Assembly: GCA_964478075.1 (NCBI GenBank) | Contig: CAYZGO010000004.1 | Location: 60,492-124,491, forward strand | DNA: 64,000 nucleotides | DNA from: an uncultured Anaerolineales bacterium | GTDB taxonomy: Bacteria > Chloroflexota > Anaerolineae > UBA2200 | Direction: 5' to 3' | In this document: positions 2,021-62,783 of the stretch, piece by piece | Numbering within the stretch: position 1 is the stretch's first letter | Layout: each line of letters starts with the position of its first letter | Made by a program: the position numbers and the translations under genes | Notes under the pieces: generated by a model | What the model was told of the DNA's origin: nothing | What the model saw: only the letters and a program-made list of their open reading frames with translations | Databases searched by the model: none

Positions 2021-3298
2021 ATGATGCGTTACTACCTTTGGACAATTGGCTGCCAGATGAACGACGCAGATGCCGCCAGAGTACGCCAGGAGTTAGCGAA
2101 GATGGGCTTCTGGCGCACCTCTGATCCTACAGAAGCGGACCTGGTGGTCTTGATCACCTGCGTCGTTCGTCAAAGCGCAGAGGACAAAGTCCTGGGAAGG
2201 CTGAGTTCCCTGAAGCACCTGAAGCGTAGCAGGCCCCAAGCAGTCATCACGGTCATGGGCTGCTTCATTGACGATGAATCAGCCTTGCACGCCCGTTTTC
2301 CCTACGTGGAAGCTTTCTTCAAGCCCTCGGACGTCTCAGGCCTGCTCGAGTTCGTACGTCAGCGTACCCCAGGCGCACCAAGCCCCTCAAGCCAAGAACC
2401 CATCACCCACCCGACCAGTCAGGCCGTCTGCGCATTTGTTCCCGTCTCCTACGGATGTGACCACCATTGCACGTACTGCATCGTACGCCTGCGGCGTGGA
2501 AGGCAGCAAAGCCGCCCTTTGCCAGACATCCTCGATGAGGTACAAAGCCTGGCGCAGAGCGGAGTTCGTGAAATCACGCTGTTAGGCCAGAATGTCGATG
2601 CCTATGGACAGGATTTGGGCACTGGCGCACCGGATCTGGCTGACGTCTTGATGGCTGTGCAGCAGATAGAAGGGCTGTGGCGCATCCGTTTCCTTACCTC
2701 CCATCCTGGTGACATGAGCCTGAAACTGATCCGGGCTGTAGCGAGTCTGCCGAAAGTATGCCCGCATTTCGAGCTGGCCGTGCAGGCCGGTGACGACAGG
2801 ATCCTGCAACGCATGGGCCGCAACTACACAGTGGCAGGCTACCAGGAGTTGGTAGCCGCGATCCGTGACCAGGTGCCAGGCTGCAGCATTGCCACGGATG
2901 TCATCGTTGGCTTTCCCGGAGAAGACAAGGTTCAGTTTCAGGCCACGTACGATCTGTTGGCTTCAATACGTTTCGACGTCGTGCACATCGCCAGGTTCTC
3001 CCCGCGCCCAGGGACTCCCGCCATGCGACTGCCTGACGACGTACCTCCACAGGAAAAAGAAAGACGCCGCGCCTTGCTCGAAGAGTTGCAGAAGCAAATT
3101 GCAGGCGAGATAAACGCTTCGCTGCTGGGCCAGACTGTGGAGGTGCTGGTGGAAGAGTGCAAACGCGGCAGGTGGAAGGGACGTACGGTGACCAACAAAC
3201 TGGTTTTCTTCGAGGATGCAGCAGACTGGCGTGGCCGGCTTGCGCAAGTACAAATCACGCGGGCCGGGCCGTGGTCACTGCGGGGGCAGCCGGCTTAG
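2021..3298 (+). CDS. miaB: tRNA-i6A37 methylthiotransferase MiaB (radical SAM)
   Basis: N-terminus MMRYYLWTIGCQMN, radical-SAM CxxxCxxC (CDHHCTYC) and TRAM-like C-terminal region. Typical MiaB length of 425 aa. Confidence 0.9.
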   Translation: MMRYYLWTIGCQMNDADAARVRQELAKMGFWRTSDPTEADLVVLITCVVRQSAEDKVLGRLSSLKHLKRSRPQAVITVMGCFIDDESALHARFPYVEAFFKPSDVSGLLEFVRQRTPGAPSPSSQEPITHPTSQAVCAFVPVSYGCDHHCTYCIVRLRRGRQQSRPLPDILDEVQSLAQSGVREITLLGQNVDAYGQDLGTGAPDLADVLMAVQQIEGLWRIRFLTSHPGDMSLKLIRAVASLPKVCPHFELAVQAGDDRILQRMGRNYTVAGYQELVAAIRDQVPGCSIATDVIVGFPGEDKVQFQATYDLLASIRFDVVHIARFSPRPGTPAMRLPDDVPPQEKERRRALLEELQKQIAGEINASLLGQTVEVLVEECKRGRWKGRTVTNKLVFFEDAADWRGRLAQVQITRAGPWSLRGQPA

Positions 3299-3458
3299 AG
3301 CCTATCCGAAAACAGCGGGCCGGGTTCCCACGTTGTTCATCCCGCTTGACGGTGCCCGGCTGTCCAGCAGCGTGCCCACTCCGCTTCGCTCCGTGGGTGC
3401 TACGCGAGGAGCTGCTTCTGCTGACTTTCCGGATAGGCACTTGGTATCGCCTTCGTTG

Positions 3459-6079: not shown

Positions 6080-6108
6080 AGTATACTACATGCGTAACAG
6101 AGTTACAA
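6080..6108 (-). promoter_or_regulatory. putative promoter for galK (TTGTAA - 17 - TATACT on minus strand)
   Basis: Read on the minus strand: TTGTAA, 17-nt spacer, TATACT. About 115 nt upstream of the galK start. Confidence 0.3.
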
Positions 6109-6204
6109 TCATGGACTAGGCAGAACCAGGAGCATCCCATAATCCGGAGCCGTCGAGTTATTTGACGGCACACTGTTTCCGGCTAGAATATGGCTACCAA
6201 CCCA

Positions 6205-6235
6205 CCCTCCCGGAGGTTCTCAACCTCCGGGAGGG
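6205..6235. repeat. REP hairpin (CCCTCCCGGAGGTT ctc AACCTCCGGGAGGG) flanking the RAYT gene, 5' side
   Basis: Perfect 14-bp stem with a 3-nt loop, immediately upstream of the IS200-like/RAYT ORF. Confidence 0.7.
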
Positions 6236-6263
6236 TACAGCGGCACAGCAAAGGGGGTAGAGC

Positions 6264-6842
6264 ATGCCCCGCCGGGGCGACGTGTTCGCTGCCGAGAACT
6301 ACTACCACATCTACAATCGAGCGGCGGCAGGCGGCCTGCTATTCTTCAACTCCAGCAACTACGAATACTGCTTGCGCCTAGTCAAGCGGTATCAACAGCA
6401 GTATGGGGCCACCGTGATAGCTTACTGCCTGATGCCCACTCACTACCACTTCCTGCTGAGACAGGAAAGCGATGAGCCCCTGTCCAAGTTCATCGGTGTG
6501 CTCTTCAATGCCTATGTGCAGGCTGTGAACCGGCAACTGGGACGCAGTGGTACCCTATTCGAGGGGCGCTTTCGTCACGTGCGGGTGGACCGGGAAGAGT
6601 ATCTGGTGTATTTGTGCCGATACGTCCATCTGAACCCAGTGGAAGCAGGACTGGTTTCTCGACCTGAAGACTGGCTCTATTCCAACTACCGAGAGTGGAC
6701 TGGACAGCGCGCCGGGACCCTGAAGGACGAGGCATTCATCTTGGAGAGATTCGCAACGCCTGACGCGTATCGACGCTTTGTAGCCGATTGGCAAGGCGCA
6801 GAGCGCTTTGGTGAACAGATACAGAAGTATGTTTGGGACTGA
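6264..6842 (+). CDS. REP-associated tyrosine transposase / IS200-like Y1 (HUH) transposase
   Basis: HUH motif CLMPTHYHFLL and catalytic Tyr region LCRYVHLNPVEAG. Both sides are flanked by the CCCTCCCGGAGGTT hairpin. Confidence 0.8.
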   Translation: MPRRGDVFAAENYYHIYNRAAAGGLLFFNSSNYEYCLRLVKRYQQQYGATVIAYCLMPTHYHFLLRQESDEPLSKFIGVLFNAYVQAVNRQLGRSGTLFEGRFRHVRVDREEYLVYLCRYVHLNPVEAGLVSRPEDWLYSNYREWTGQRAGTLKDEAFILERFATPDAYRRFVADWQGAERFGEQIQKYVWD

Positions 6843-6850
6843 CGCGCCCA

Positions 6851-6880
6851 CCCTCCCGGAGGTTCTGAACCTTCGGGAGG
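6851..6880. repeat. REP hairpin flanking the RAYT gene, 3' side (one mismatch)
   Basis: CCCTCCCGGAGGTT ctg AACCTTCGGGAGG. Sits between the RAYT stop and the RBS of the next gene. Confidence 0.7.
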
Positions 6881-6899
6881 CTTGAGAAGGAGGACAACC

Positions 6900-8687
6900 A
6901 TGAAAAGGCGCCATTTGGTTAGCAGAGGAATCCTGATCGCCATTCTCCTGTACATGCTCTTGTCCATGGGATGCATCAAGCGCGTCACACCCACACCTAC
7001 TCCCGTGCCTAGCCCGTTTGCCACGGCCACTGGCACTTCCGTGCCTGCCGTCATTTCCACCGCCACTCCTACTCCCACGGAGCCACTTCCGACGACGGCG
7101 CCAACTCTGACACCCGAACCGCAGCCCACTGCCACCCCGACGCCATCAACTACTGTCACCCTGCGTATTGGCTGGCTGGGAGCGCCTGACTCGCTGAACC
7201 CCGTTGCTGACGAACCTAGCGAAGCAGACGCCGTCTTGTCCCTCGTGTTCGATCACCTGATCTACGATACGCTGGACAACGCATATGCTCCTGCTTTCGC
7301 CAGGAGCTGGGCCAGCCCGGACGGCGGAAAGACGTGGGTCTTTGACTTGCGGGCCGACGTGGAAACCCACGACGGGCATCCCTTCACCGCCGAGGATGCG
7401 GCCTTCACGCTGCGCCTCTACCAGGGCCATCCCAAGTTCACTTACTACAGCGGCTATACAGCAACCATGCAGAACATCGAGGCCACGAGTCCCAACACCC
7501 TGACCATCACCATGAGCCAGCCAATCGGCAACATTGAAGCATTTGTCCATTGGGTGCCCCTTCTGCCCAAGCACATCTGGGAGACCGTGGAGATCAGCAC
7601 AGTAACAGAATTCGACGATCTGCTGATCGGCAGCGGCCCCTTTATGCTGAAGGAACATCAGTTTGGAGAGCGGATTACCCTCTCGGCCAACAAAGGCTAC
7701 TGGATGACAGCGCCCAGAGTGGACACGGTGACCTTCCAGACCTACCCAGATGCCGATGCCCTGGCACAGGCCCTCAAACAAGGAGACGTTGACCTGATCA
7801 CCGAGTTGTCTGGGCGCTTGATAGCCGATCTGAAGAGTGACCCCCACGTCCAGGTCGTCTCCGGTCCGCACATCCGCCTGCGCACTCTCGCCTTCAACGT
7901 ATCGGACAAGGCGCAGAGCACTGGCCACGCCGCTCTCAAAGATCCGCAAGTGCGCCTGGCCATCGCCCATGCCATTGACAAGCAGCAGATCATTGACCTG
8001 GCGTTGTTGGGTCAGGGTATGCCCGGCCTCAGCATCCTTCCGCCAGCTCTGCGCAGGTGGTTCAACTATGAGATAGAGGACGTGCCGTTTGACCTGCAGG
8101 AGGCACAACGCATTCTGGATAGCGCTGGCTACGTTGACAGCGATGGCGATGGGCTGCGTGACATGCCTGACGGCGCCAGCTCACTGGACTTTCGTCTGTT
8201 CATACCGTCAGATTCGGTCACAGGCAGCCGCGAAGGCGAAATGATCGGAAACTGGCTGCGCCAGATAGGCATAGGAATCAGCGCACAAACGCTGGCTCCA
8301 GACGCGCTGAGCGCTGCTTGCTGTCCTGCCTGTGACTACGATATGGTACTCTGCGAACAGGACGGGGGCCCGGACCCAGATTCTCTCTTAAGCATCGTGA
8401 CAACTGCGCAGATTGAGACTGGGCTAAACGAAACTGGCTACTCCAATCCTGCCTACGACGCGCTTTACGAGCAGCAGATAACCATTATAGACCAGAAGCA
8501 GCGCCGCCAGATCGTCTGGCAGATGCAGGAAACAGCCTTCAACAGCCGACCTTACGTGGTGCTGTACTACGACTTGACGGTGCAGGCCTTCCGCAAGGAC
8601 CGCTTCCAGAACTGGCTGTTCATCCCCAATGGGATTCTGTCGCTGGCAGACGAACGATCGTTGCTACAAGTCGAGCCACTACCATAG
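6900..8687 (+). CDS. ABC transporter substrate-binding lipoprotein, family 5 (peptide/nickel type)
   Basis: Signal peptide plus lipobox LLSMGC, Pro/Thr-rich linker, then an SBP_bac_5-like core (TLRIGW...PDSLNP...). GAAGGAGGA RBS before the ATG at 6900. Confidence 0.85.
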   Translation: MKRRHLVSRGILIAILLYMLLSMGCIKRVTPTPTPVPSPFATATGTSVPAVISTATPTPTEPLPTTAPTLTPEPQPTATPTPSTTVTLRIGWLGAPDSLNPVADEPSEADAVLSLVFDHLIYDTLDNAYAPAFARSWASPDGGKTWVFDLRADVETHDGHPFTAEDAAFTLRLYQGHPKFTYYSGYTATMQNIEATSPNTLTITMSQPIGNIEAFVHWVPLLPKHIWETVEISTVTEFDDLLIGSGPFMLKEHQFGERITLSANKGYWMTAPRVDTVTFQTYPDADALAQALKQGDVDLITELSGRLIADLKSDPHVQVVSGPHIRLRTLAFNVSDKAQSTGHAALKDPQVRLAIAHAIDKQQIIDLALLGQGMPGLSILPPALRRWFNYEIEDVPFDLQEAQRILDSAGYVDSDGDGLRDMPDGASSLDFRLFIPSDSVTGSREGEMIGNWLRQIGIGISAQTLAPDALSAACCPACDYDMVLCEQDGGPDPDSLLSIVTTAQIETGLNETGYSNPAYDALYEQQITIIDQKQRRQIVWQMQETAFNSRPYVVLYYDLTVQAFRKDRFQNWLFIPNGILSLADERSLLQVEPLP

Positions 8688-9009: not shown

Positions 9010-9939
9010 ATGCACAGCGCTCAAGATTTGCACAAGGCAGTGATCCCCGTAGGTGGCTTAGGCACTCGTTTGTTGCCTGTTACCAAAGTACTGCCCAAGG
9101 AACTGCTGCCAGTTGGACGGCGCCCAATTGTACAGTACGTTGTGGAAGAAATGCGCGCAGCCGGTCTGGAGTGTATCTGCTTCGTCACGGGGCGCAAGAA
9201 AACGCTCATCCAGGAGCATTTTGACCATGATCCCGAGCTGGTGCGCCACTTGCAGGATCGTGGACGCGACGAGCTTTTGGCGGAACTGGCCTACCTGGAG
9301 TCCGGTCTGCACCTGACGTACATCCGTCAAAGTGGGCCCCAGGGCCTCGCTGATGCGTTGAGTCTAGCCGAGCACTTTGCCGGCGAGGAACCCTTCGTGG
9401 TGGCCTTGGGAGATTCCATTATCTACGAGCCCGAAATGGGGGCACTGCTGCGCAGGATGATGAAGGAGCACATAGAAAAGGACGCGGGAGCTACGATCGC
9501 AGTGGAAACCGTGCCGCTGGAAAAGGTGCGCCAGTATGGCATCGTGCACCCAGCAAAGGCTACGACGGCCAAGGATGATGTATTTGACGTTGATGACCTG
9601 GTCGAAAAGCCCAGGCCCCAGGACGCTCCCAGCAATCTGGCTATTGCCGCGCGCTTCGTCTTCAGTCCTGCAATCTTTTCTGCTATCCGCCACACGAGGC
9701 CAGGACAGGGAGGAGAGATGCACCTGACCGATGCCATTCGCATTCTACTCCGCCAGGGAGGCAAGGTACAGGCGGTGCGGCTCTCTCCAGGACAACGCCG
9801 ACATGACATTGGCAGTTTTGGCGGCTACTTCCGCGCCTTCCTGGAATTTGCCCTGATGGACCGCTACTTCGGAGACGAGGTGCGCGGCTATCTGGAAGAA
9901 GTGGCCGCACGGAAACATGAATGGGAAGATGACGAGTAG
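9010..9939 (+). CDS. galU: UTP--glucose-1-phosphate uridylyltransferase
   Basis: KAVIPVGGLGTRLLP...KELLPV signature. Start at the ATG (MHSAQD) behind a GAGGAAAGGAAG RBS. Confidence 0.85.
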   Translation: MHSAQDLHKAVIPVGGLGTRLLPVTKVLPKELLPVGRRPIVQYVVEEMRAAGLECICFVTGRKKTLIQEHFDHDPELVRHLQDRGRDELLAELAYLESGLHLTYIRQSGPQGLADALSLAEHFAGEEPFVVALGDSIIYEPEMGALLRRMMKEHIEKDAGATIAVETVPLEKVRQYGIVHPAKATTAKDDVFDVDDLVEKPRPQDAPSNLAIAARFVFSPAIFSAIRHTRPGQGGEMHLTDAIRILLRQGGKVQAVRLSPGQRRHDIGSFGGYFRAFLEFALMDRYFGDEVRGYLEEVAARKHEWEDDE

Positions 9940-9965
9940 CCGCGAGTTACGGGCAGGAGGAAGAT

Positions 9966-11072
9966 TTGACTGAGAAGGGCAACATCTGCGGTACTTCTGC
10001 GGATATCGCACAACAGTTGGCAGCGGCGATTGACGAGGTGTTCACGGTTGACCAAATCACTGCTGGCCTGCGCGATGGGCGAGCGATAAAGCTACAGGGA
10101 CAGCTTCTCACCGACTCGGAGCAGGCGTACGCTTACATAGCTGCGCGCTTCAAGGACTATGGCTACACACCGTTCTTGCGCCAACAAACTGGGCACGTGC
10201 TCGTTACCGCTATCCCTGTCGTCTTCACTGCTAAGCCAGCCGGGAATTATGGCGCCATCCTATTGTTCGCTCTGACTATCCTTTCGGTGCTGTTTGCCGG
10301 CACAGCAGCACAAGCCGCCGATCTGCAGTGGCTGCTCAGTCACCCCCTGGCCGGGTTGCCTTTCGCCGCCAGCCTTCTCGCCATCTTGACTGCACACGAA
10401 CTGGGACACTACTTCATGGCACGGCGGCTTGGCGTAGCGGTCAGCCTGCCCTATTTCATTCCCATGCCGCTGAGCCCCTTGGGCACCATGGGCGCCGTAA
10501 TCCGGATGCGAACTCCGACGCGCAACCGCCGCCAACTCCTGGCCATCGGTGCTGCTGGGCCCATAGCTGGCCTGATCGTTGCCATTCCCGTCCTCATCCT
10601 CGGCCTACTCCTCTCAGAAGTGCGGGTCATCCTCATGCAACCAGGAACCTGGATGGAGGGCAACTCCCTGCTGTATGCAGCGCTGAAATTGCTCGTGTTC
10701 GGGCAGTTTCTGCCCCACAATGGCTACGACGTCTTCCTGCATCCGGTGGCATTCGCAGCGTGGGCTGGGTTGCTGGTTACTGCATTCAATCTGATTCCTG
10801 CCGGACAGCTTGATGGAGGTCATATCGCCTATGCCCTCTTCGGAAAGAGTACGCGCTGGCTGAATCGTCTCGCTGTCCTGGTAGCTATGGCTCTGGGTCT
10901 TGCTTGGTCCGGCTGGTTCCTTTGGGCGGCCATTCTCCTCCTACTGGGCCAGCGCAGTGTACAGCCACTAGATGACGTCACTCCATTGACTGCTGGACAG
11001 AAAGCGCTCAGCGTTTGTATGCTGATCCTATTCGCTTTGCTGTTCACGCCCATACCCATGTCCATACTCTGA
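9966..11072 (+). CDS. site-2 protease family (peptidase M50) membrane metalloprotease
   Basis: HELGH zinc motif and NLIPAGQLDGGH third-ligand motif, multiple TMs. TTG start behind an AGGAGGA RBS. Confidence 0.8.
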   Translation: MTEKGNICGTSADIAQQLAAAIDEVFTVDQITAGLRDGRAIKLQGQLLTDSEQAYAYIAARFKDYGYTPFLRQQTGHVLVTAIPVVFTAKPAGNYGAILLFALTILSVLFAGTAAQAADLQWLLSHPLAGLPFAASLLAILTAHELGHYFMARRLGVAVSLPYFIPMPLSPLGTMGAVIRMRTPTRNRRQLLAIGAAGPIAGLIVAIPVLILGLLLSEVRVILMQPGTWMEGNSLLYAALKLLVFGQFLPHNGYDVFLHPVAFAAWAGLLVTAFNLIPAGQLDGGHIAYALFGKSTRWLNRLAVLVAMALGLAWSGWFLWAAILLLLGQRSVQPLDDVTPLTAGQKALSVCMLILFALLFTPIPMSIL

Positions 11073-13335: not shown

Positions 13336-13769
13336 AACCCATAGGCGTGGCGAGAAACGAATTCGAGGAAGCAGTGCCCCACGGCTGGAGAACTGCTCTG
13401 TCTCGCATCATCGTCGCTGAGAAATGGGCACCGGCATTGGATGGCCTGGAGGAGTTCTCACACCTGAGCATTCTCTTCTGGCTGCACCGCATGCGGCGTA
13501 AAGTGTCACTGCACATTCACCCGCAAGGGCGCCATGACCTGCCGCTTGTGGGGCTGTTCGCTACTCGTACACCCGTGCGTCCCAATCCCATCGGGTTGCA
13601 GATCGTAGAGTTCGTATCCAGAGAGAAAAACGTGCTTACCGTACGCGGCCTCGACGCGCTCAACGAGAGCCCCGTTCTGGACATCAAGCCCTATCTTCCG
13701 CGAGGTGAGTGCATTGCCGAGCCTGCCATCCCTGCCTGGCTGAAGAAGCTGTGGTCAGAGGACAAATGA
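13320..13769 (+). CDS. tsaA: tRNA (N6-threonylcarbamoyladenosine37) methyltransferase TsaA/TrmO-like (YaeB family)
   Basis: LEGFSHL..LFW and NPIGL motifs typical of the YaeB/TrmO fold. 16-nt overlap with the upstream gene. Confidence 0.7.
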   Translation: MRIELEPIGVARNEFEEAVPHGWRTALSRIIVAEKWAPALDGLEEFSHLSILFWLHRMRRKVSLHIHPQGRHDLPLVGLFATRTPVRPNPIGLQIVEFVSREKNVLTVRGLDALNESPVLDIKPYLPRGECIAEPAIPAWLKKLWSEDK

Positions 13770-13789
13770 ACGCTGGTAGCCGGGCAGGG

Positions 13790-15244
13790 CTAGGCTGAGC
13801 ACTGGCGCAGGAACTCGAGAGCCTCTTTTGTAGTGCGTACCTGCCCTTCAGCCTGCGCTTCGCGCACCTCCTCCAGAAGCCGCCCCACTTCAGGCCCTGG
13901 CTGCAGGCCTAACAGCGTCATTACGTCGCGGCCGCTCACCAGCGGCGATGGGGCCACTGCCACGTGCGCCTTCCGGAAATAGTTGTCCAGCATCAGGCTG
14001 GTCAGTTCCAGATGCCGCCGCCAGTGGTCCTCAAGAGATGCTGCTCCCTGGGCAGCCCGATAGCCGGCTAGGGAGAGTATGAGCACATCTATGCCCGCGT
14101 CGCCGGTGTCACGAAAGAAGCGATAGATGTGCCTCCCGGTGACTGGCGGCCCTTGAACCAGGAGCCCCGGTCGCGTGTGCTGAGCAACGACTGTGCTTAC
14201 CAGGCGGATCTCCCGCGCGGCGAAACGGAGCCGGGTGAGCACCTGCGTGGCGATTTCTGCGCTGAGTCGCTCATACCCGAGAAAGCGTGCGCCCCCATCG
14301 GCCTCCCCTGTGCTGGTCTCCGACCTACCGGCCCCGTGCAGCATGGCAGCAAACTTGAGTAGAGTGGAGCGCCTGCGCTTTTCGCAAATCGTCTCGCTAA
14401 AATGCGCCGCCAGATCAGCGGCGAATGGCCCCAGCGAGTGTGCCTCATCCGGGCCGAGTTGCGCATCCGGGAATGCGCTCAGCCGCTCAACTTCGGCGAT
14501 TGTGGCCAGTGTGTGCTCGTAGACGTCAGCGGCACGTGAATCAGGCTGAGGAAGGCCTTTGAGAGATGCCAATTCGGGGATGACGCCGCGCATCAGACCC
14601 AGGTCATCCATGCGCCGCAAATGATCTGCCGCTCCTGGTGAAGCCACTATGAGTGCCAGTTCCTGTCTTATCCGCTCTGCTGAAGGCTGCGTGACCAGAG
14701 GCGCATCGCGCCGTATCCACGACTCTGTGTGCGGTTCAATGCTCAGGTTCAGAGTCGCGACAAAACGCAGCGCGCGCAGCAGCCGCACCGGATCTTGCTG
14801 AAAAGCATGCTCGCTCGTAGCCCGCAGAATGCGGGCCTCCAAGTCGCCCCGTCCACGACAGGGGTCAAGTATCTGGGGCTCGGGCTCATACCATTCGCGC
14901 ACATCTACGGCCATAGCGTTGATTGTGAAATCACGCGCTCTCAGGTCAGCAATAACGTCCACGCCCCGCATCGCCGCAAAGTCAACGGTCAAATCATGGG
15001 GCCGAGGATAGACAATTCGGGCCGCGTCCGTTTGTTCATCCAGGACGTAAAACGCCCCTTCAGTGTCGTCGGCGACGCGACGTGCGAGAGGCACAGCAGC
15101 ACCATCAACCGCAAAATCCACGTCCCTGCCTGGCTGCTTCAGGAGGCGCTCGCGCACATAGCCGCCAGCGACGTAGCATGGCTGCGCTTCGCTGCACAGC
15201 AGGCCAATGATGCGCTTCAGCAAATCATTCCCGCTCAGGTCCAT
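13790..15244 (-). CDS. cca: CCA tRNA nucleotidyltransferase (poly(A) polymerase head domain plus HD domain)
   Basis: GGxVRD (AGGYVRERLL) nucleotidyltransferase motif, then a long helical and HD-like C-terminal part. 484 aa. Confidence 0.75.
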   Translation of the reverse strand: MDLSGNDLLKRIIGLLCSEAQPCYVAGGYVRERLLKQPGRDVDFAVDGAAVPLARRVADDTEGAFYVLDEQTDAARIVYPRPHDLTVDFAAMRGVDVIADLRARDFTINAMAVDVREWYEPEPQILDPCRGRGDLEARILRATSEHAFQQDPVRLLRALRFVATLNLSIEPHTESWIRRDAPLVTQPSAERIRQELALIVASPGAADHLRRMDDLGLMRGVIPELASLKGLPQPDSRAADVYEHTLATIAEVERLSAFPDAQLGPDEAHSLGPFAADLAAHFSETICEKRRRSTLLKFAAMLHGAGRSETSTGEADGGARFLGYERLSAEIATQVLTRLRFAAREIRLVSTVVAQHTRPGLLVQGPPVTGRHIYRFFRDTGDAGIDVLILSLAGYRAAQGAASLEDHWRRHLELTSLMLDNYFRKAHVAVAPSPLVSGRDVMTLLGLQPGPEVGRLLEEVREAQAEGQVRTTKEALEFLRQCSA

Positions 15245-17877: not shown

Positions 17878-17925
17878 CGTTTACGCCTTCCGTTTACGCC
17901 TCTGGCGTAAACGGAAGGCGTAAAG
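17878..17925. repeat. 21-bp near-perfect palindrome (CGTTTACGCCTTCCGTTTACGCC tctg GCGTAAACGGAAGGCGTAAAG) inside an 825-bp non-coding gap
   Basis: 20/21 complementary arms with a 4-nt loop. Flanking sequence carries further, less perfect inverted repeats. Confidence 0.6.
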
Positions 17926-23672: not shown

Positions 23673-23749
23673 TGGGGTGGATGACGGGATTTGAACCCGC
23701 AACAACTGGTTCCACAGACCAGCGCTCTGACCGTTGAGCTACATCCACC
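23673..23749 (-). tRNA. tRNA-His (anticodon GTG) with encoded G-1 and 3' CCA
   Basis: Minus-strand read gGTGGATGTAGCTCAACGGTCAGAGCGCTGGTCTGTGGAACCAGTTGTTGCGGGTTCAAATCCCGTCATCCACCCCA: 7-bp acceptor stem, anticodon loop CTGTGGA, T-loop GTTCAAATC, extra 5' G pairing with discriminator C. Confidence 0.85.
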
Positions 23750-23823: not shown

Positions 23824-23865
23824 CCCTCCCGCAGGTTCGATCGCCATAAGTAACGTCCGGGAGGG
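23824..23865. repeat. REP-like hairpin (CCCTCCCGCAGG ... CGTCCGGGAGGG) just upstream of tRNA-His
   Basis: Imperfect member of the CCCTCCCGGAGG family (two swapped positions in one arm), 18-nt loop. Confidence 0.45.
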
Positions 23866-24196: not shown

Positions 24197-26017
24197 CTAC
24201 TCACTGCTCACCACTCGCAGTTCCACGTCGTCCAGGTACACCGCCGTGATGCCATCGTGCCCATCGTTTTTCACACCGAAGCGCAGATTGACGCGCTGCC
24301 CTGCGTAGCCCAGCAGGTCGAAGGTGCGCAGGTTCCAGGCTTGATTGTGGTCTGTCCAGTAGGTGCAGTCTGACTCGCCACCGCCGCTAGTAGGGAGCAC
24401 GCAGAAGTAGATGAGATCCCCATCCACCTGCGCGCTCACTGGAAAGTAGTAGAAGGACAGCTCCGCCTGCGTCACCCCGCTGGGGATATCCACCGTCTGC
24501 TGCACAGAGGAGTAGCTCTCCACGTTGTAGCCAGTGTCAATCCCCAGGCGCATAGAGCGCGAGCCGCTGTGCGCACGGCCCACAGAGTAGCCTGCCGGGT
24601 AGGTGGTCCGCAAGATCTCCCACGCCTCCTCCCTCTCAAAGCTGTGATTGAGAATCAACTGTGTGTATTGTGGAGTGGACGTTGCAGTCGCCGTGGGCGT
24701 AGGCGATGGTCCAGTCGTAGGCGTCTCCGAGACTCCAGGCGTGAGGGAAGGGCTGGGTGAGGGCGTCGCACTTCCCGTGAGCGTGGGCGAAGGACTGGGC
24801 GATGGCAGTGCAGTCGCCGTAACCGTAGGGGAAGGGCTGGGCGAGGGCGTTGGACTCGGCGTGACCGTAGGCGAAGGGCTGGGCATGGGCGTCGGATAGC
24901 CTCGCAGCACGATGGGCAGAAAGGCTCTGGAAACCAGCTCTTCGAAAAGGCCATAGGACAATCCGGCCTGGTACACCGCCTCTGCCACCGTCCGCGGGTC
25001 AGGGGCAATACTGTAAGGTGTGTCGTCAAAGGCATACGCTCCCACAATCCAGACAGAGCCTTGAAAAACCAACGTGCGCTCATTCATGGGCAGCGTAGGC
25101 GAGCCAGGGTTCAGGCTGTGGCTGGCCTCGTAAGCATCAAAGCCGTGGAACAACAGTGCGTCCACGTCCCAACCACCAGCAACCAATGCATCGCGCTGCT
25201 GAATCAGCGTTGCGTATGCTTCCGCTGCCTGGCCAAAACGCTGTATCCAGGCCTCAGCGAAATGGCCTGCCGCGGCTGCATATTGCATCGTGTACAGAGG
25301 GTAGTGCACCACCACCTCCGAAGGCCAGCCAAGCGTGCGCGCAGCGTCCTCCAAGACCATCTGCTCAATGTCCTTGTGGGTGGCCGTAGGTGAAGGCACA
25401 TGCGTAGGAGTAGATGTCGGCGTGGCTGTCGCGGACGTAGGCGAAGGAGAAGCTGTAGGCCCACTGACGGTGATGGAATCACCGATCCACGTGGCCACGA
25501 TCGGTTCCGCGCAGTGGTTCGCCAAGACGCCACGGGTGAAGGTGATGCCACTGGTACCCGGTCTGAGCGCACGGAAAGTAATGCGTGCCAGCACGCCGCT
25601 TCCGCTCGCCGGCTCTCCAGGCGGAATGAGGGTCACTGTGTAAGTGATGGCGCCTGTCTCGTTCACAGCCTCATTCCGCGCCGGATAGAGCCACAACAAA
25701 TCCAGGAAGTCGCCTGGCTCAATCTGCACGCCAGTCCTGGCGGGGTGTGCGTCCTCTACCCACAGCACGTTGGGATCAAAAGAGACGGTCAAGTCCAACC
25801 CATAGAGATTCACGACGTCCCGCACCTGTATCTCGACGATGGCAGTCTCGCCCGCTGCCACCACGCTCGAAGCAGGCACGATGAGCACCTGCGTACTTTG
25901 CGTCTCTTGGCCATCCAAGATGCCAAGAGACTGTGTGCCCCGTGCATCCCCGGCGCCGAGCAGCAGCAAGGTAAGCGCCATAGCGACCAATGACACGAAC
26001 ACAGTCAGCCTGCGCAT
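24197..26017 (-). CDS. secreted cohesin-domain protein with Pro/Ser/Thr-rich linkers and a C-terminal beta-rich domain
   Basis: Signal peptide, then a cohesin-like domain ([27 protein letters not shown]...[10 protein letters not shown]), two PT/PS linkers and a C-terminal domain of about 150 aa. Confidence 0.7.
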
Positions 26018-26299
26018 GCTTTACCACCTTGGCATTTGTGGAGATCAAAACGAGGAACTAGGAAACATGCAGGACTGGAAGCCACGCTTCTCACACACGG
26101 ACGGGCGACAAACCATGTCCATCGCTTGCGCACAGCACACGCTAGCAGTCTGGCTTCTGAACAGTCACCCACGCACCTGAGGCGCACCAATACAAATGAC
26201 ACAAGTCGCCAGCCGGGCCCCTATCGCTCAACATCTCCGCACCGCCGTGAAGCAGGCGGTGCTGGGGTGCCGTCCTGCAGATTCCCCCCCCCAGGCTCC

Positions 26300-26332
26300 A
26301 GGTGACCGGCACCTCTAAGGTGCCGGTCACCT
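26300..26332. terminator. perfect 14-bp hairpin (AGGTGACCGGCACC tctaa GGTGCCGGTCACCT) downstream of the LysM-cohesin gene
   Basis: Lies 25 nt past the stop of the 26357-27442 gene on its 3' side. No U-tract, so it is a GC-hairpin type terminator or RNA-stability element. Confidence 0.4.
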
Positions 26333-26356
26333 GATATGTCCAGGCGTCAAATCAAC

Positions 26357-27584: not shown

Positions 27585-30500
27585 CTAGCGATCACCGCCA
27601 GCCTTGCGTATCAACGGCAGGTAAACCCGGTACTTTGGAATGAGAATGGACCCATTCACCGTGATCACGTTGTCAAAGAGCTGTGCCTCCGGATCAGCCA
27701 GGTCTGCCAGGATAATGTCCAGCGCGCTGTAGCCTAGCGCCTTCGCCTGGAAGGTGATAGTGCATAATGTGCCACTGCCCACAGCAGGTGGTGTGTCCTG
27801 AAGCAGCCCTACTGCATATTCCAGCACGCCCATTTCGTTGTCCACCGTATTGGTGAACACCATGCCCAACTTCATGTCAGGCGGTCCCAAATCGGGAAAA
27901 CCACCCGGAGTGATCTGCACAAGGCGTGTATCGGGATCAGCATCCTCTACTTGCAAGATGCTGGGATCGAACGTCAGTTGAACATCTACGCCAAAGAGGT
28001 TGCTCACCTGCTCCAGTTGCAGTGTGACGGTCAGCAACTCTCCCACCTCGCCCACCTGGTGCTCAGGCGAAACACGCACGTACACCGGTCCCGCTGCACG
28101 TGCCCGGAGCGCGCTTGCCGCCTCCGCTTCCCACGGGGCGGGCCAGTCCTTGTGCAGTCCCCTGGCCACGATGACCAGATCCTGGACGTTCACCTCGCCA
28201 TCCTGGTTCAAGTCCACATAGAAATCGCTAGGTGGGACAGAGTGCAGCCTGCGGGCAACCCTGACCAGGTCAAACACGTCCACAACCTCATCGTCGTTAG
28301 TATCGCCGCCCCACATCTTTGCGTCGTCCATCACCGTCGTGACGCCACCTTCCACCGACACACCCACCCTCTGCATGGGTATGTAGCCCTTCAGCTCCGC
28401 CTTCAGGGTGTACGTGCCCTCGGGCATGTGCAAGAGGGCAAAATGGCCGTCGCTGTCGGTAGTCGTGGTGACAGCACCCGTGCCCACCGCTACTCCACTG
28501 TGATCCAGGCGGCCGTGAACTTCTATCGTGCCGATGATGGCTCCTGTGCCGCCAGGCGTGCACTGCCCTCCCAAGTAGGAGAAGCCGTACATTCGCAGGG
28601 TATTGTAGGTATCACCATTGGACTGCCACGTGTTGACGTACACATCGTCGCTGTAGTCAGGGTCCGCAGAGTCGTATAGGAACTTGACCCGCAGGCGCTG
28701 CTCCTCGCTGGCGGAGAAGAACGATCGGCCATCAGGCAACGTGGTATTGGGTGCCGGGATAGCGTCGTGCCAGCGGCTCAAATCACTCTGGCTGTAGTGA
28801 TGCACATTGCACCCATAGTAATAGGCGCGGCTCATCTCCGACTCCCAATTGCTGGTCAGCAGGTACTTTTGCCCGGTAGGCAACTCCAAGTCCGTATACT
28901 CATCAGGCACTGTGTGCCATTGCTCCGTCTGCCACAGCTCTGTTCCAATGGCATAATCTGGTTCGTAGTACAGCTCCTTCAACTCGCCAAAGTACTGCGG
29001 CTCGCTGTCCTCTTCCACGATGCGAATCTGGCACGGCACTACGCCTGGCAGTGGATCGCCACGGCAGTGTCCATCTCTGAAGCGATCGTTAGCAAAGACG
29101 AACTCTTCCGTGGTCCCATTAGTGGGCACATCCCTCTTCTCACGCAGCGCCTGGATGTCCTCCACGCAGGTATGCACAAAGTTGAAGGGCGGCATGACGG
29201 ATATGATGCTTGTATCCACACCAAGCACCTCATCGCCGGTGTAGCCCTCAAGCTTTTGCGAGTCAATGTCGTCAACAAAGTTCTTCTTGAACACCGGCGT
29301 GCGGATGGTGATGTACTTGAACTCGTACAGCTCATCGCCAGGGTTGAGCGTACTGGCTTCCACGGCGCGCACTGCCACTACATTGTACTCATGGCCATCC
29401 ACGTAGAAGCGCTTCAGATACCAGGGGTCACCGGGTTTCATATCGCGTCCGTTGCGGCCATCCCCCATTGCGGTATGCGTATGCCCCAGCGCACGGCCAA
29501 CCGTGAGCGAGGCCTGATCGGTGATGTGGTCCACGGACTTGACAAAGACAAACCAGGCACCGTCCACACGACCCAGGTTGTTGCTGCCTTTGGGAATACG
29601 CCGTGGCATCGCTCTGTTGGCAATGGCCATTTCCTTTTCTAGAAGCGACATCGTGCCGATGTAGTCAGGCTGCAACGAGTACTGCCCTGTTCCCGGATCA
29701 TAGTGCACGCCGCCGCCCGTGTCCCAGAACTTCAGTAGGGCCTGCCCAGGGGAGACGCTCAGCAGCGTGACCATGTGGTCCAGGAACTGTATGCTGTCCC
29801 CCTTATCCAAGGGGACATCTTCCAGGACAAAGACCACCATTTCGTTGCCATTCAGCGCGATCGAGTCCTCGTCGAGCAGATCAAGCTGTCCATCGCCGTC
29901 AAAGTCAGCCTGAATACGGGTGAGCGCGGCCAGCGACTGTTCGCTGTGCACCTGTACAATTTGAGGATTGCCGTCAAAGTTGGCATCAAAAGTCGTCAGG
30001 CCATAGCCAAAGCTGGGCAGCTCGATAGTAGGCAGTTCTCCATCAGAGCCCGGTGCGGGCAACTTCTTCTTCCCAGTGGCCATGGGGAAAGCGAACTGGC
30101 TTGAACCTGGCTGTCCATGTGCTGGCTGGTACTGGGTGTCCAGGTACATGTACGTGAACTCCTGCACCACTGCCGGGTAGGAGTAGACCGACGTTGGTGT
30201 AAAGGGCGGCGCGGAGTCCACCTCATTTATCCTGTGCACATACAGCGGCTCGTACCACATGCGCACGAAGACCTTTTCGCGAGCATTGCCCTCCCGAATG
30301 GTAATCCTGCGATACAACTCGACCAGATCGTCGCCGATGTTCTCCTCACTCATGTAGGCCGGATTGAGGGTCAACGAGTCCTTCGGTGGAGCCTCTGGCA
30401 ATTGCGGGTTAAAGGGCGCCCAGGGATCGGTGTAGGGCCATACTTCAACCGGATAGGTGATCGGAGCATCAATTGTGCCAAGATCTTCGATGTGCCTGTT

Positions 30501-32645
30501 GCCCGGCCCTTCATGGTCAAAGCCATAAACGCGCAAGCCCGTGTCACTCTTGTACTTCTTGCCGCCCTCAGCGGGATCGAACCAGAACTTGACCTGCGGT
30601 TTCCAACCGTCGGGCATGTCGTGCACGGCGTCATCGCGCAACCAGCACTGCGTGTCATAGTCCCAACTCAGGTTATAAGCCCAGGTGGTGTCAGTATGCA
30701 CATTCTGCGTCCACAGCACGTACTCGCTTTGCGGAGCCAGGAAAGAGCTGGTCAGCAGGTAAAGGTCAGTCTGGCCAGTCAGGTCGGGCAGCACAAACTC
30801 GGTGTACTTCCAGGGCAGAGTGTGCCACTGCTCTACGTACCAGAATTCCCCTGCCTCCGGGTGCTCACCGTACTTTTCCTTCAGTTCGCCGAGGAATTGA
30901 TCATTCTTGTCCTCTTCCACGTAGAAGAAGTGCATCTCCCGGACGTCCTCGTAGGTAGGAGGCGTAATGCCTGGCGGCCTGTAGGGTATGTAGTCACCAC
31001 TCTTCTGCTGGATAGGTGGCACAGGTCCCACTAGTGAACCATAGTAGTGCACATCCTCCTCTTTGCAGGTGAAAGCCTCGATGGCCTGCACATCCAAGAT
31101 AACATAGTGCTCATAGTTGTAAGGTGGCATGACGGAGAGATAGTCTTCCGCTCCATAGGCCTGCAGGCGCACCGAGTGCTGCTGGATCAAATACCCGTCA
31201 CCAGGATCCTCGTACTCACTGGCCTTGGGAATGGGCGTTCGAATGGTGATGAACTTGAACTTGCTGAGATCTCGCGGCGGCGGCCAGAACTCTGTGTCAA
31301 TTAGCCCATCCCCGTCCTGGTCAATCGAGCACGTTACGCCGCCGTCACCCAACCGAATATCCGCGCCGTCCTCTGTCTTGATGGCGACGACGTTGTATTC
31401 GTGACCATCCACGTAAAAGCGCTTCAGGAACCACGGATCACCCGGGCACCGGTCTTGCTGGTTGGGCGCGTATTCCATGCCGCTCCAGGCAGCACCAAGT
31501 GCGCGTCCCACCATCAAAAATGCGCTTGGCTCGTCGGGATCAATGTGGTCTAGGTACGCGAAGAAAGGACCTGTGGGAAACTGGCACATGTTGGTGCCTG
31601 GCCCGCCATTGGCCACGGCCACGATTTGCTTAACAGGGCCATCGCTCCCCGCAAGGAGCATGTCGCCGACAGAGATAGTCTTAGCGCCCAGGCTATGTGG
31701 TGTCAAGTCGCCAGTATACCAGACTTTGAGAGACACGCTGTTGCTGTCACCGTACACTTGTTGGAGGACGATCCTATGATCCAGAAACTGCAGGGCCCCG
31801 TCCAGGCCCAGCTCCATGGTATCCAAGCGAAGAATGGCCAGTTCGTTGCCATTCAGTTGCGCACCATCGAGGTCCAGCGGGTCAATATAGCCATTCCCGT
31901 CAAAGTCGGCAGCGATAAGCGTTTTCTCGAACAGCGTCAATTCGCTCTCTACGTGGACGATGTCTGGAACGTCATCAAAGTTGCCGTCCAGGCTGGTCAG
32001 GCCGTAGCCGTAGGGATCAGATAGATCGCCCTGCCGCATACCCACAGGGAAGACAAAACTCGTCTCGCCTACCCGCCCAGCCACGGGGCGCGGCTCATCG
32101 GCCAGCGGATAGGGCTGCAGCAGCATGTAAGTGAACTCTTCCATCACCGCTGGGTACCACTCATCGTGCAGGGTATCCGTGTACGGCACCTGCGCCTGGG
32201 GATGGATGTCCAGCTCACCACTGGCGTTGAGATCCTTGTCCCAGTGCCACGGCTGGTACCACATGCGGAAGCACACCTTTTCGGACGCGTCAACGCCGCC
32301 TGCCTTGATCCGGTGGTAGAGGTCATGATAGTAGTTCTCGTCGAAGGTCCTGTTATAGTGCATCCACAGCGGGTTCCAGGTTACGGAGTCTTTAGGGGCT
32401 TGTTCGAGCTGGGGGTTAAAGATGGGCTCAGAGGCAGTGTATGGCGGATCTTCAGGGCACAACCCAGTGCAAGGATCCACAGCATCTGGGTCCCCCGCTT
32501 GGCCCACGATCCGAGCAGAAATGCGCGCCTCTGCCACCGATCCGGCCAAAGCAAAGGTGTCTGCCTCTGTCGCCAATGCAACTACTGCACCCAACAACAG
32601 TGTGGTGACAATCAACGCAACTATGACTCTGAGTGCCCTGGGCAT
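27585..32645 (-). CDS. giant secreted multidomain protein (about 1,686 aa) carrying two tandem large repeats of about 500 aa, a CarbopepD-regulatory-like beta-sandwich, a dockerin-like double EF-hand and a C-terminal cohesin-like domain
   Basis: Signal peptide MPRALRVIVALIVTTLLLGAVVALA. Duplicated block GDPW[FY]LKRFYVDGHEYNVVA / ADFDG[ND]G..D.LD. Dockerin-like VVDVFDLVRVARRLH...DLNQDGEVNVQDLVIVARGL. Cohesin-like tail VGELLTVTLQLEQVSNLFGVDVQLTFDPSILQV...GTLCTITFQAKA. Start ATG at 32645 with a GGGAGGAG RBS. Confidence 0.75.
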   Translation of the reverse strand: MPRALRVIVALIVTTLLLGAVVALATEADTFALAGSVAEARISARIVGQAGDPDAVDPCTGLCPEDPPYTASEPIFNPQLEQAPKDSVTWNPLWMHYNRTFDENYYHDLYHRIKAGGVDASEKVCFRMWYQPWHWDKDLNASGELDIHPQAQVPYTDTLHDEWYPAVMEEFTYMLLQPYPLADEPRPVAGRVGETSFVFPVGMRQGDLSDPYGYGLTSLDGNFDDVPDIVHVESELTLFEKTLIAADFDGNGYIDPLDLDGAQLNGNELAILRLDTMELGLDGALQFLDHRIVLQQVYGDSNSVSLKVWYTGDLTPHSLGAKTISVGDMLLAGSDGPVKQIVAVANGGPGTNMCQFPTGPFFAYLDHIDPDEPSAFLMVGRALGAAWSGMEYAPNQQDRCPGDPWFLKRFYVDGHEYNVVAIKTEDGADIRLGDGGVTCSIDQDGDGLIDTEFWPPPRDLSKFKFITIRTPIPKASEYEDPGDGYLIQQHSVRLQAYGAEDYLSVMPPYNYEHYVILDVQAIEAFTCKEEDVHYYGSLVGPVPPIQQKSGDYIPYRPPGITPPTYEDVREMHFFYVEEDKNDQFLGELKEKYGEHPEAGEFWYVEQWHTLPWKYTEFVLPDLTGQTDLYLLTSSFLAPQSEYVLWTQNVHTDTTWAYNLSWDYDTQCWLRDDAVHDMPDGWKPQVKFWFDPAEGGKKYKSDTGLRVYGFDHEGPGNRHIEDLGTIDAPITYPVEVWPYTDPWAPFNPQLPEAPPKDSLTLNPAYMSEENIGDDLVELYRRITIREGNAREKVFVRMWYEPLYVHRINEVDSAPPFTPTSVYSYPAVVQEFTYMYLDTQYQPAHGQPGSSQFAFPMATGKKKLPAPGSDGELPTIELPSFGYGLTTFDANFDGNPQIVQVHSEQSLAALTRIQADFDGDGQLDLLDEDSIALNGNEMVVFVLEDVPLDKGDSIQFLDHMVTLLSVSPGQALLKFWDTGGGVHYDPGTGQYSLQPDYIGTMSLLEKEMAIANRAMPRRIPKGSNNLGRVDGAWFVFVKSVDHITDQASLTVGRALGHTHTAMGDGRNGRDMKPGDPWYLKRFYVDGHEYNVVAVRAVEASTLNPGDELYEFKYITIRTPVFKKNFVDDIDSQKLEGYTGDEVLGVDTSIISVMPPFNFVHTCVEDIQALREKRDVPTNGTTEEFVFANDRFRDGHCRGDPLPGVVPCQIRIVEEDSEPQYFGELKELYYEPDYAIGTELWQTEQWHTVPDEYTDLELPTGQKYLLTSNWESEMSRAYYYGCNVHHYSQSDLSRWHDAIPAPNTTLPDGRSFFSASEEQRLRVKFLYDSADPDYSDDVYVNTWQSNGDTYNTLRMYGFSYLGGQCTPGGTGAIIGTIEVHGRLDHSGVAVGTGAVTTTTDSDGHFALLHMPEGTYTLKAELKGYIPMQRVGVSVEGGVTTVMDDAKMWGGDTNDDEVVDVFDLVRVARRLHSVPPSDFYVDLNQDGEVNVQDLVIVARGLHKDWPAPWEAEAASALRARAAGPVYVRVSPEHQVGEVGELLTVTLQLEQVSNLFGVDVQLTFDPSILQVEDADPDTRLVQITPGGFPDLGPPDMKLGMVFTNTVDNEMGVLEYAVGLLQDTPPAVGSGTLCTITFQAKALGYSALDIILADLADPEAQLFDNVITVNGSILIPKYRVYLPLIRKAGGDR

Positions 32646-32851
32646 TTCATCTCCTCCCTTGTGCAAAGCGACGTGATACGTAGCACTGGCTCACAGGTTT
32701 ACTAACATTATCTTACCACGAAAGTGCCAGATTGTCAACGTAAGCTAATCTGAGACTTACCTGCAAGTTTACCAAGGATTCGGTCACCGGCGGTGGCAGA
32801 CACGACGGGGTTTCAACCTAAGCCGGCGCTGTAGGTCAGATTGGGAGCAAA

Positions 32852-32950
32852 CAGACTCTCCCGTAGGTTACCAACAACGGTTTCGCTTTCTTGGGATACC
32901 TCGAGCGTCACGGAAGGGCACTCAACACGTTATCAGAAACTACGGGAGGG
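32852..32950. repeat. long-loop REP-like element (CTCCCGTAGGTTACCAACAACG ... GGGCACTCA ... ATCAGAAACTACGGGAGGG), copy 1
   Basis: Terminal inverted repeats related to the CCCTCCCGGAGG REP family. About 65-70% identical over 100 bp to 62555-62651, with compensatory changes in the stem. Confidence 0.6.
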
Positions 32951-33643: not shown

Positions 33644-33719
33644 CCCGACATCGTAGAGACGTAGCATGCTACGTCTCTACCGCTGCACCGCCGCCAAGAC
33701 CAGGCCTCTAGGAGGAACA

Positions 33720-62554: not shown

Positions 62555-62651
62555 GACCCTCCCGGAGGTTACCAACAACGCCTTGCACTTTGTGCGATCT
62601 GTCAAGCGTCCCGGCGGGGCACTCACCATGCCATCAGAACCTCCGGGAGGG
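62555..62651. repeat. long-loop REP-like element, copy 2 (CTCCCGGAGGTTACCAACAACG ... GGGCACTCA ... ATCAGAACCTCCGGGAGGG)
   Basis: Homologous to 32852-32950. Its stem uses the canonical CCCTCCCGGAGG arm. Confidence 0.6.
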
Positions 62652-62783
62652 TTCGCCTGGTGCAACAAACTGTTGCCCACTGAGGGAACTTGTGCTATAC
62701 TGCGTCAGGGTTGGCAGTACGCAGCCAAGGGTCTTTTTCACTCCCCTTCGAAAAGGTGTTGGGCAAAGAATCGGAGCATAGGA

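Follow-up and report, generated by a model that had tools for sequence, protein, structure and literature searches.

The stretch of DNA analysed here, 64,000 nucleotides long and called the window in what follows, belongs to a metagenome-assembled genome (MAG) of an uncultured Anaerolineales bacterium of the phylum Chloroflexota, and at positions 6202–6881 of its plus strand it carries a cassette of about 680 bp that consists of a hairpin, a gene resembling those that encode REP-associated tyrosine transposases (RAYTs), and a second hairpin. This cassette is probably of the REPtron type, i.e., a class-2 (Y...NP) Y1 HUH gene of the RAYT/TnpA_REP kind bounded by direct copies of its cognate hairpin, the latter comparable to the repetitive extragenic palindromes (REPs) of other bacteria. 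The evidence consists of the gene family, fold and motifs of the protein; the enrichment and extragenic placement of the hairpins; the covariation of protein and hairpin; and the cassette as an insertion or deletion (indel) between related genomes, all of which were directly observed. A sequence-only reading of the window had already proposed a RAYT gene bracketed by two hairpins of one family in a probably non-proteobacterial host; the first proposal is borne out by the sequence, the Pfam family Y1_Tnp and the fold of 4ER8, and the second by the Chloroflexota MAG itself. The exact Y1 gene was also found on a contig of MAG GCA_034430235.1, and the named relatives of both the Y1 protein and the adjoining galactokinase come from Chloroflexota or Anaerolineae MAGs.

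The Y1 HUH endonuclease gene, which is RAYT/TnpA_REP-like and of which the 64-kb window has one copy, occupies positions 6264–6842 of the plus strand, is preceded by a Shine–Dalgarno-like GGGGG at 6253–6257, and encodes 192 amino acids (aa). Its product scores 29.7 bits with Pfam Y1_Tnp, above the cut-off of 23, and has no further Pfam domain; its sole NCBIfam match is REP_Tyr_transpos (NF047646; 70.1 bits, E = 1.7e-19, 143 of 146 positions covered), and no IS200 transposase model in NCBIfam matches it. In the comparison with Y1, RAYT and IS200 models, proposed beforehand as a check, the first two are matched, the RAYT model at a score below its equivalog cut-off of 80 bits. Sequence searches lead to a single relative of solved structure, E. 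coli TnpA_REP (4ER8, E = 0.034), with an identity of about 15%. An AlphaFold (AF2) model built from an alignment of 35 relatives reaches a pLDDT of 89.3, and its closest fold in the PDB is 4ER8_A, the complex of TnpA_REP with a REP hairpin (E = 7.5e-9, TM 0.61/0.70), followed by the TnpA proteins of ISDra2, IS200, and IS608. The HuH motif is H60-Y-H62 with T59 before it, and the tyrosine motif is Y120-VHL-N124-P125; among the 35 aligned relatives, H62, Y120, N124, and P125 do not vary at all and H60 hardly varies. The tyrosine motif YVHLNP has the form Y-x3-NP and not the Y-x3-Q of the class 1 IS200/IS605 TnpA; it has been reported that Y-x3-NP is the signature of class 2 (TnpA_REP) and Y-x3-Q that of IS200 transposases (PMC6006769, Table 1). 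The consensus motifs of the relatives are NHYH, LFEGRF (F-E), and YIHLNP, and a Ser-containing tail, YSNY, is conserved among them. The ratio dN/dS is about 0.06–0.16 against five to seven orthologs, with synonymous sites saturated, which indicates that the Y1 gene is under strong purifying selection. Placement of the open reading frame (ORF) among the genes for Y1 HUH/Tyr proteins, and within these in the RAYT (TnpA_REP) class and not in the IS200 class, is supported.

The ORF starts 28 nt past the upstream hairpin and ends 8 nt before the downstream one. The upstream hairpin (6204–6236, plus strand) reads ACCCTCCCGGAGGTT-CTC-AACCTCCGGGAGGGT, with a 15-bp stem without mismatch and a 3-nt loop; the perfect 14-bp stem that had been noticed at 6205–6235 (CCCTCCCGGAGGTT-CTC-AACCTCCGGGAGGG) is confirmed and is extended to 15 bp by the pair A6204/T6236. 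Folded as single-stranded DNA, it gives −19.0 kcal/mol with a z of −8.2. The downstream hairpin (6851–6881, plus strand) reads CCCTCCCGGAGGTT-CTG-AACCTTCGGGAGGC, its left arm being identical to that of the upstream copy, and folds at −12.5 kcal/mol with a z of −3.6; it had been described as carrying one mismatch, and while the hairpin itself stands, the count does not, the stem being slightly more degraded, with 13 pairs, one of them a G.T wobble, and a C.C mismatch at its end. Both hairpins contain the 20-mer CCCACCCTCCCGGAGGTTCT, so that the flanking copies are in direct and not inverted orientation. In the flanks of about 45 short-loop copies of the hairpin, the only conserved positions are an A at −1 and a T at +1, which lengthens the stem to 15 bp, and neither a GT[AG]G nor a CGTC tag is present in these flanks.

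Comparison with related genomes indicates that gene and hairpins form one unit. Orthologs of the galactokinase, 76–82% identical, occur in three related genomes (L130; L133/L134; L132), in which galK adjoins, divergently, the SBP_bac_5 gene for an ABC substrate-binding protein (SBP), with galK/SBP spacers of 267, 238, and 408 nt, and the Y1 gene is absent from the junction in all three. A promoter-like site at 6162–6189 of the window (plus strand, TTGACG-16-TAGAAT, a 10/12 consensus match), which lies 5' of the cassette, is kept in L130, L132, and L133, where it stands directly 5' of the SBP gene; in L130 and L133, an AAGGAG ribosome-binding site and the SBP start follow about 30 nt past it. 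In the alignment, the insert covers about 6202–6881, with the conserved promoter before it and the ribosome-binding site of SBP after it, and its ends coincide with the outer feet of both hairpins within about 5 nt. Because the junction lacks the gene in three related genomes, the hairpin–gene–hairpin unit is a discrete insertion, a point that the sequence-only reading had missed. By this alignment, gene and hairpins came as a unit, in sense orientation, inside the 5' untranslated region of the SBP gene, and the host promoter at 6162–6189 probably drives both the RAYT gene and the SBP gene. Since this promoter is the SBP gene's own, both hairpins are probably read through if SBP is expressed. 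No T tract was found after either flanking hairpin; the reading of the hairpins as intrinsic terminators was rejected on this ground, and the terminator role that had been suggested for the downstream hairpin fails both for lack of a T tract and because read-through from the SBP promoter is probably required.

Several further observations were made at related loci. The closest relative, L132, has no Y1 gene and a degenerate lone hairpin, CCCCCCTGTAGGTT-cag-AGCCACAGGGAGAC, at about 2320–2370 (reverse strand), at the place of the window's downstream hairpin and directly 5' of the ribosome-binding site; its junction also has about 65 nt of extra sequence. The lone hairpin could have been left behind when a gene between two direct hairpins was lost, or it could have been inserted independently. 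In L004, the cassette is flanked by an 89-nt direct duplication of host sequence (396–483 vs 1218–1306, 91% identity) that derives from the TaqI_C gene upstream, namely its 3' end, and in L006, a 59-nt direct duplication (about 1405–1463 vs 2142–2196, 76% identity) derives from the 5' end of the downstream gene. Such long flanking host duplications were found in L004 and L006 only, and none was found at the window cassette; target duplication is not known for Y1 HUH transposition. In L086, a 5'-truncated gene (2950–3357, residues 74–192) has a hairpin of the family 14 nt before the truncation point and the end of a TaqI_C-like gene directly upstream, and this copy is likely a decayed cassette.

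The strongest result of the analysis, drawn from sequence comparison, is the cognate relation between gene and hairpin. On long contigs, homologs 61–78% identical to the window protein lie in four unrelated neighbourhoods, each flanked on both sides by the window-family hairpin, CCCTCCCG[C/G]AGGT[T/C]-loop-AACCT[G/C]CGGGAGGG, and the arms are nearly unchanged among these homologs despite the saturated synonymous sites of the gene. A metagenome scan added 80 further loci with homologs 38–74% identical. Taking the metagenome loci, the window, and the four earlier loci together, 72 loci have at least 120 nt on either side of the gene (homologs 38–78%); a perfect hairpin of at least 12 bp is found at most 200 nt away on both sides in 41 of them, on one side in 24, and on neither side in 7, whereas in control 200-nt windows elsewhere in the same loci such a hairpin occurs in 31 of 1293 (2.4%). 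A 10-mer is common to both sides of the gene in 32 of the 72 loci. The arm sequence varies by protein lineage, for instance ACCCTCCCGCAGGTT, AACGTCCCGAAGGTT, AGGTGCGACGCACCT, AAGTGACAGTCACCT, AACCTTGCGAAGGTT, ACCTTCCAGGAAGCT, and AGACCTCGGAGGTCT, and since it shifts with the protein lineage, protein and hairpin are cognate. Meanwhile, the architecture is constant across lineages: a 15-nt arm, A-N6-n-N6'-T, which is itself a dyad with 5–7 of 7 self-complementary pairs, is followed by a 3–4-nt loop and then by the identical 15-mer with its centre base complemented. Owing to the dyad symmetry of the arm, the hairpin can just as well be described as a 15-bp palindrome repeated in tandem. Matching proteins number in the thousands, and wherever their host is named, it is a Chloroflexota lineage; the loci of the distant homologs come from untyped metagenomes.

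These data also bear on a reading in which the unit of about 680 bp is an autonomous IS200/IS605-like element that copies itself, with the hairpins as its left and right ends and with the short hairpins and the elements of about 95 nt, described below, as deletion derivatives or footprints. The cassette is indeed a discrete indel with ends at the hairpins, its unit is IS200-sized, its end hairpins are direct as in IS608, and the neighbourhoods of the homologs differ in every genome examined, so that the conserved synteny expected of a vertically fixed RAYT gene was not found; in addition, group 1 RAYTs are the most IS-like group, with 6.3% duplicates and some copies on plasmids (PMC5581495). 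However, the tyrosine motif is Y...NP (class 2) and not the Y...Q of IS200 transposases (PMC6006769, Table 1), and an NCBIfam IS200 match is lacking. For every exact protein that was looked up, one genomic context was found, and orthologs differ by 22–39% with saturated synonymous sites, no near-identical copies having been seen in the sequences searched. The GC content of the cassette (57.9%) is close to that of the window (57.8%), the GC content at third codon positions (GC3) likewise matches the host, and the gene is absent near most hairpin loci. An autonomous element of this kind is thus considered unlikely, and the REPtron-type reading is preferred.

The arm recurs beyond the cassette. 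Counted with at most 2 mismatches, the 14-nt arm is present in the window at 12 places, the expected number being 0.34, and none of 100 shuffles reaches 12, so that the proposed comparison of arm frequency with shuffled sequence, made here for the window, turned out as the sequence-only reading had expected. That an unrelated palindrome lies by chance beside a transposase-like ORF, for which nothing speaks beyond the many palindromes of GC-rich genomes, is practically out of the question: no shuffle attains the observed arm count, and the arrangement recurs in dozens of independent loci, which refutes it. The 12 arms form six inverted pairs at 1882/1948, 6205/6222, 6851/6868, 23824/23852, 32856/32937, and 62557/62638, all of which lie outside called or Pfam-supported coding sequence according to gene calls on overlapping public contigs and Pfam boundaries. 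A canonical REP is a short (20–50 nt) extragenic multi-copy palindrome, and here the hairpin is 31–33 nt long, with six pairs in 64 kb. Four dispersed copies had been pointed out previously; their existence and intergenic placement hold, but they do not have the 3-nt-loop form, their arms being 52, 14, 67, and 67 nt apart, and their positions are shifted by 0–4 nt. The element at 1882–1961 (CCCTCCCGCAGGAT / AACCTGCGGGAGGA, 52 nt between arms) shows a compensatory change from G-C to C-G and lies between a minus-strand gene with a called start at about 1807 and a radical-SAM gene starting at 2102. The element at 23824–23865, with degraded arms 14 nt apart that are 87% complementary, lies between the tRNA at 23676–23748 and the gene at 24197–26017. 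Two elements have the 95-nt form with 67 nt between the arms: that at 32856–32950 (CTCTCCCGTAGGTT / AAACTACGGGAGGG), with a compensatory change from G-C to T-A, is located in the divergent intergenic region between 27585–32666 (minus strand) and 33029–33643 (plus strand), and that at 62556–62652, with perfect 15-nt arms, is located upstream of a likely methyltransferase start at 62784. No strand is assigned to these four elements. The two 95-nt elements have interior sequence in common, in part also with L004.

Three of the four dispersed elements (1882–1961, 32856–32950, and 62556–62652) lie in divergent intergenic regions near gene starts, although the numbers are small; reports place classical REPs mainly between genes that are convergent or co-directional. 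Public contig L001 ends at window position 2067, about 100 nt past the 1882–1961 element, and public contig L137 ends at 6330, about 95 nt past the upstream hairpin and within the Y1 gene; both contig ends at repeats are consistent with repeat-driven assembly fragmentation. In the related genome L003, hairpins occur in a cluster of three with 46-nt spacing upstream of the gene (9850–9972) and, 3 kb away, in a second tandem cluster of three with 72–75-nt spacing (13766–13943), and these tandem clusters resemble bacterial interspersed mosaic elements (BIMEs).

A hairpin scan of 185,579 species-representative genomes for perfect window-type arms 3–63 nt apart, a collection and range outside which the host genome and the 67-nt form fall, returned 39 loci, almost all in Chloroflexota MAGs (Anaerolineae, Ardenticatenaceae, Thermoflexales, and Chloroflexia) and nine of them in one MAG; the outliers are a few loci in Calditrichaceae, Bacteroidales, and Sulfomarinibacteraceae bins. 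A Y1 gene is nearby in only 2 of the 39. On a crude gene map, 37 copies could be classified, of which 29 are situated between long ORFs (18 tandem, 7 divergent, and 4 convergent), and the remaining 8, inside maximal ORFs, were judged by coordinates to lie mostly near ORF ends. The 95-nt form appears to be constrained in length: arms are 62–68 nt apart in 42 of 361 perfect inverted pairs, compared with 6 pairs at 57–61 nt and 2 at 69–75 nt. It is present in many lineages with the lineage's own arms; its interiors are repeated within a locus, with five copies in L107 and further cases in L094, L069, L072, and L061, and are unrelated between lineages. Single-sequence folds of the 95-nt elements were weak or inconsistent, revealing no conserved structure, and no covariance model was built.

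It could also be supposed that the hairpins are mainly regulatory, serving the host or the gene itself as RNA stabilisers, attenuators, or double-stranded DNA operators, possibly with the Y1 protein repressing itself, and that they disperse independently of the enzyme. Each 15-nt arm is an operator-like dyad, the upstream hairpin directly follows a promoter-like site, the lone stem mismatch of the downstream hairpin is, on the sense strand, a G.T, and of the six pairs in the window, five are found downstream of a promoter-like site or within regions that contain gene 5' ends. Nevertheless, purely regulatory hairpins would not covary with one flanking protein lineage at constant architecture, nor would they bound an indel, and the multi-copy 95-nt elements with lineage-specific interiors are left unexplained. 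The missing T tracts exclude intrinsic terminators, and no Rfam family is matched: at gathering thresholds, Rfam yields only a tRNA in the whole window, so that a known RNA family was rejected, and permissive Rfam scans of 6100–6950 and of the 95-nt element returned nothing but chance matches below threshold. A mainly regulatory origin is accordingly rated as quite improbable.

For a REPtron-type cassette, the following course of events can be proposed. The cassette inserted as one unit, with the promoter of the ABC substrate-binding-protein gene on one side and the ribosome-binding site of that gene on the other, and is probably transcribed from that host promoter. The short hairpins and the elements of about 95 nt, with arms 62–68 nt apart, would be non-autonomous copies, which the enzyme may recognise as folded single-stranded hairpins; Tyr120 and a metal bound by the HuH motif would then cut and rejoin the hairpin ends and thereby move or copy hairpin-bounded segments. 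The scheme follows E. coli TnpA_REP and the TnpA of IS608 and ISDra2, for which such cutting and rejoining has been shown (PMC8266576); for the window protein, catalysis, recognition of single strands, mobilisation in trans, and activity at present are inferred.

The cassette shares features with several known systems. Genes bordered by their own REPs (REPtrons) or by other repeats (TIRtrons) are established (PMC3733652, PMC6006769, PMC8266576), and atypical tag-less flanking structures have been described for subclasses 2.6 and 3. The E. coli REPtron (TnpA_REP, group 2 or subclass 2.2, 4ER8; REP/BIME) is alike in its Y1 HUH fold with HuH and Y...NP motifs and in that its gene is bordered by palindromes that are also dispersed extragenically and co-vary with the protein. 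However, E. coli REPs have a 5' GTAG guide, a bulged stem, and inverted pairs, while the window hairpins have no tag, a perfect 15-bp stem, and direct copies; evidence that tnpA_REP is mobile is lacking according to PMC8266576, whereas the window cassette is an indel. Consequently, the sequence-only comparison with the gammaproteobacterial REP/RAYT arrangement stands as regards the RAYT class and the cognate dispersed repeat but not as regards the canonical type, given the absence of a GT[AG]G tag, the perfect dyad-armed stem, the direct copies, the 70.1-bit score, and F99/E100. The published Chloroflexi REP systems, GTAG-23 of Thermomicrobium roseum (PMC3733652) and the REPtron CaurA01/ABY36092.1 (PMC6006769, Table S1), the latter read here as Chloroflexus aurantiacus, come from the same phylum and have the same general layout of REP plus Y1 gene, but their REPs are GT[AG]G- or GTG-footed with 7-bp stems (e.g., GGCGTGCGGCAGCCATGCTGCCG) and are assigned to subclass 2.2. 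Table S1 of PMC6006769 does not list the CCCTCCCGGAGGTT stem. The window cassette is therefore a REP/RAYT-type system with atypical features in a phylum where REP/RAYT systems were already known.

The motifs of the protein are closest to subclass 2.1 or group 1, a placement made by motifs and not by a tree. TnpA_Y1 subclass 2.1 (Quentin et al. 2018, PMC6006769) corresponds to RAYT group 1 (Bertels et al. 2017, PMC5581495) and to most TIRYT/TIRtrons (Di Nocera et al. 2013, PMC3733652), and its second motif set, NH[YF]H / FQ / Y[IV]HLNP (PMC6006769, Table 1), fits the consensus of the window protein's relatives (NHYH / F-E / YIHLNP), the window copy having THYH. Subclass 2.1 is also alike in its IS-like behaviour and variable contexts, and the flanking repeats of TIRYTs are partly or wholly self-complementary, some terminal inverted repeats being "double palindromic" (Di Nocera, PMC3733652). 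On the other hand, its proteins have a median of 238 aa and a C-terminal helix-turn-helix-like domain, while the relatives of the window cassette have 192 aa and lack this domain; the subclass is reported without REPs, while these relatives are consistently hairpin-flanked; and the TIRYT repeat consensus GGGGWSAS is absent from the window arm. With IS200/IS605 elements (IS200, IS608, and ISDra2), the cassette shares a unit of about 0.7 kb with one small Y1 gene and two subterminal same-strand hairpins, as well as the lack of an obvious short target duplication; the ends of IS200 are perfect palindromes (PMC8266576). IS200, however, has Y...Q and near-identical multiple copies, whereas for the window cassette no duplicates were seen in the sequences searched, and its two end hairpins share one sequence that is dispersed also alone. 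REPINs (Bertels and Rainey 2011, PMC3116915) resemble the form of about 95 nt in having inverted multi-copy arms, here 62–68 nt apart, and an interior conserved within a genome, as in a REP doublet that folds into a long hairpin, but REPINs are tied to RAYTs of groups 2 and 3 from Proteobacteria; each "REP" would here be a 15-nt dyad, and a collapsed 3-nt-loop form is the commonest. Group 4 RAYTs are common in Caldilineae (PMC5581495). The literature search for the arm sequence gave only unrelated eukaryotic matches, and no paper connecting REPs with Anaerolineae was found; in the literature searched, neither REPs associated with a clade of 2.1-like motifs nor an empty-site demonstration of cassette insertion was found.

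Several points weigh against the REPtron-type reading. The score of 70.1 bits does not reach the equivalog cut-off of 80 bits for NF047646. The guide-region residues W94/Q95 of E. coli align with F99/E100, and with no guide tetranucleotide and a perfect stem in addition, the recognition and cleavage rules of E. coli are not transferable. T59 (codon 6438–6440), present in the window protein and in its 99% relative P0001, replaces the N of at least 90% of the relatives, and THYH in place of NHYH might impair the window copy. Moreover, the subclass whose motifs match, 2.1, has been reported as REP-less (PMC6006769), so that either the motif assignment is wrong or the report missed the clade of the window cassette. 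In the latter direction, it is tentatively suggested, at somewhat less than even chances, that a very large and apparently undescribed RAYT-like clade of about 192 aa exists in or next to the REP-less subclass, with lineage-specific, GTAG-less tandem-dyad hairpins (two 15-bp palindromes 3 nt apart), a tendency to a length-constrained derivative of about 95 nt, and a gene that moves with its hairpins as a cassette.

In addition to the CCCTCCCGGAGGTT family, other repeats were observed in the window. A lone hairpin with a perfect 16-bp stem at 26299–26333, C-AGGTGACCGGCACCT-cta-AGGTGCCGGTCACCT-G, has the tandem-dyad architecture, and its arm type flanks another paralog lineage (L066/L092) that is 49–52% identical to the window protein and has 3569 relatives at E ≤ 1e-40, some of which bear names of Thermoflexales and Anaerolineae MAGs; a second cassette is probably present elsewhere in the host. 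A tandem array at 38237–38525 comprises 5.4 copies of a 54-nt unit, each with the 19-nt palindrome GTCGGAATGTCATTCCGAC; a CRISPR reading was rejected because the 35-nt "spacers" between the palindromes are conserved. A hairpin with a perfect 21-bp stem (TTTACGCCTTCCGTTTACGCC / 3-nt loop) at 17880–17924 lies within a longer imperfect inverted repeat, and a perfect 28-nt palindrome at 33653–33680 lies between two ORFs; both are outside the CCCTCCCGGAGGTT family.

REP/RAYT systems rank with the most common repeats of bacteria, and experimental work has been done nearly entirely on two proteobacterial groups with GTAG-tagged REPs. The basic picture of these systems is unchanged by the present locus, which adds to it a well-populated clade that is Chloroflexota wherever the host is named. 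As practical points, the repeats lie near the ends of two short contigs and could be mistaken for regulatory RNA structures. With no guide tetranucleotide and a perfect stem, recognition must rest on features of the stem or loop, and the dozens of protein lineages, each with a distinct arm on a fixed architecture, form a ready-made data set on specificity. Meanwhile, the empty-site comparison has gene and hairpins arriving together at a defined site. If the proposed clade is real, it would provide direct comparative evidence for the mobility of tnpA_REP genes, and its natural covariation of protein and hairpin would allow the recognition code of perfect-stem REPs to be read.

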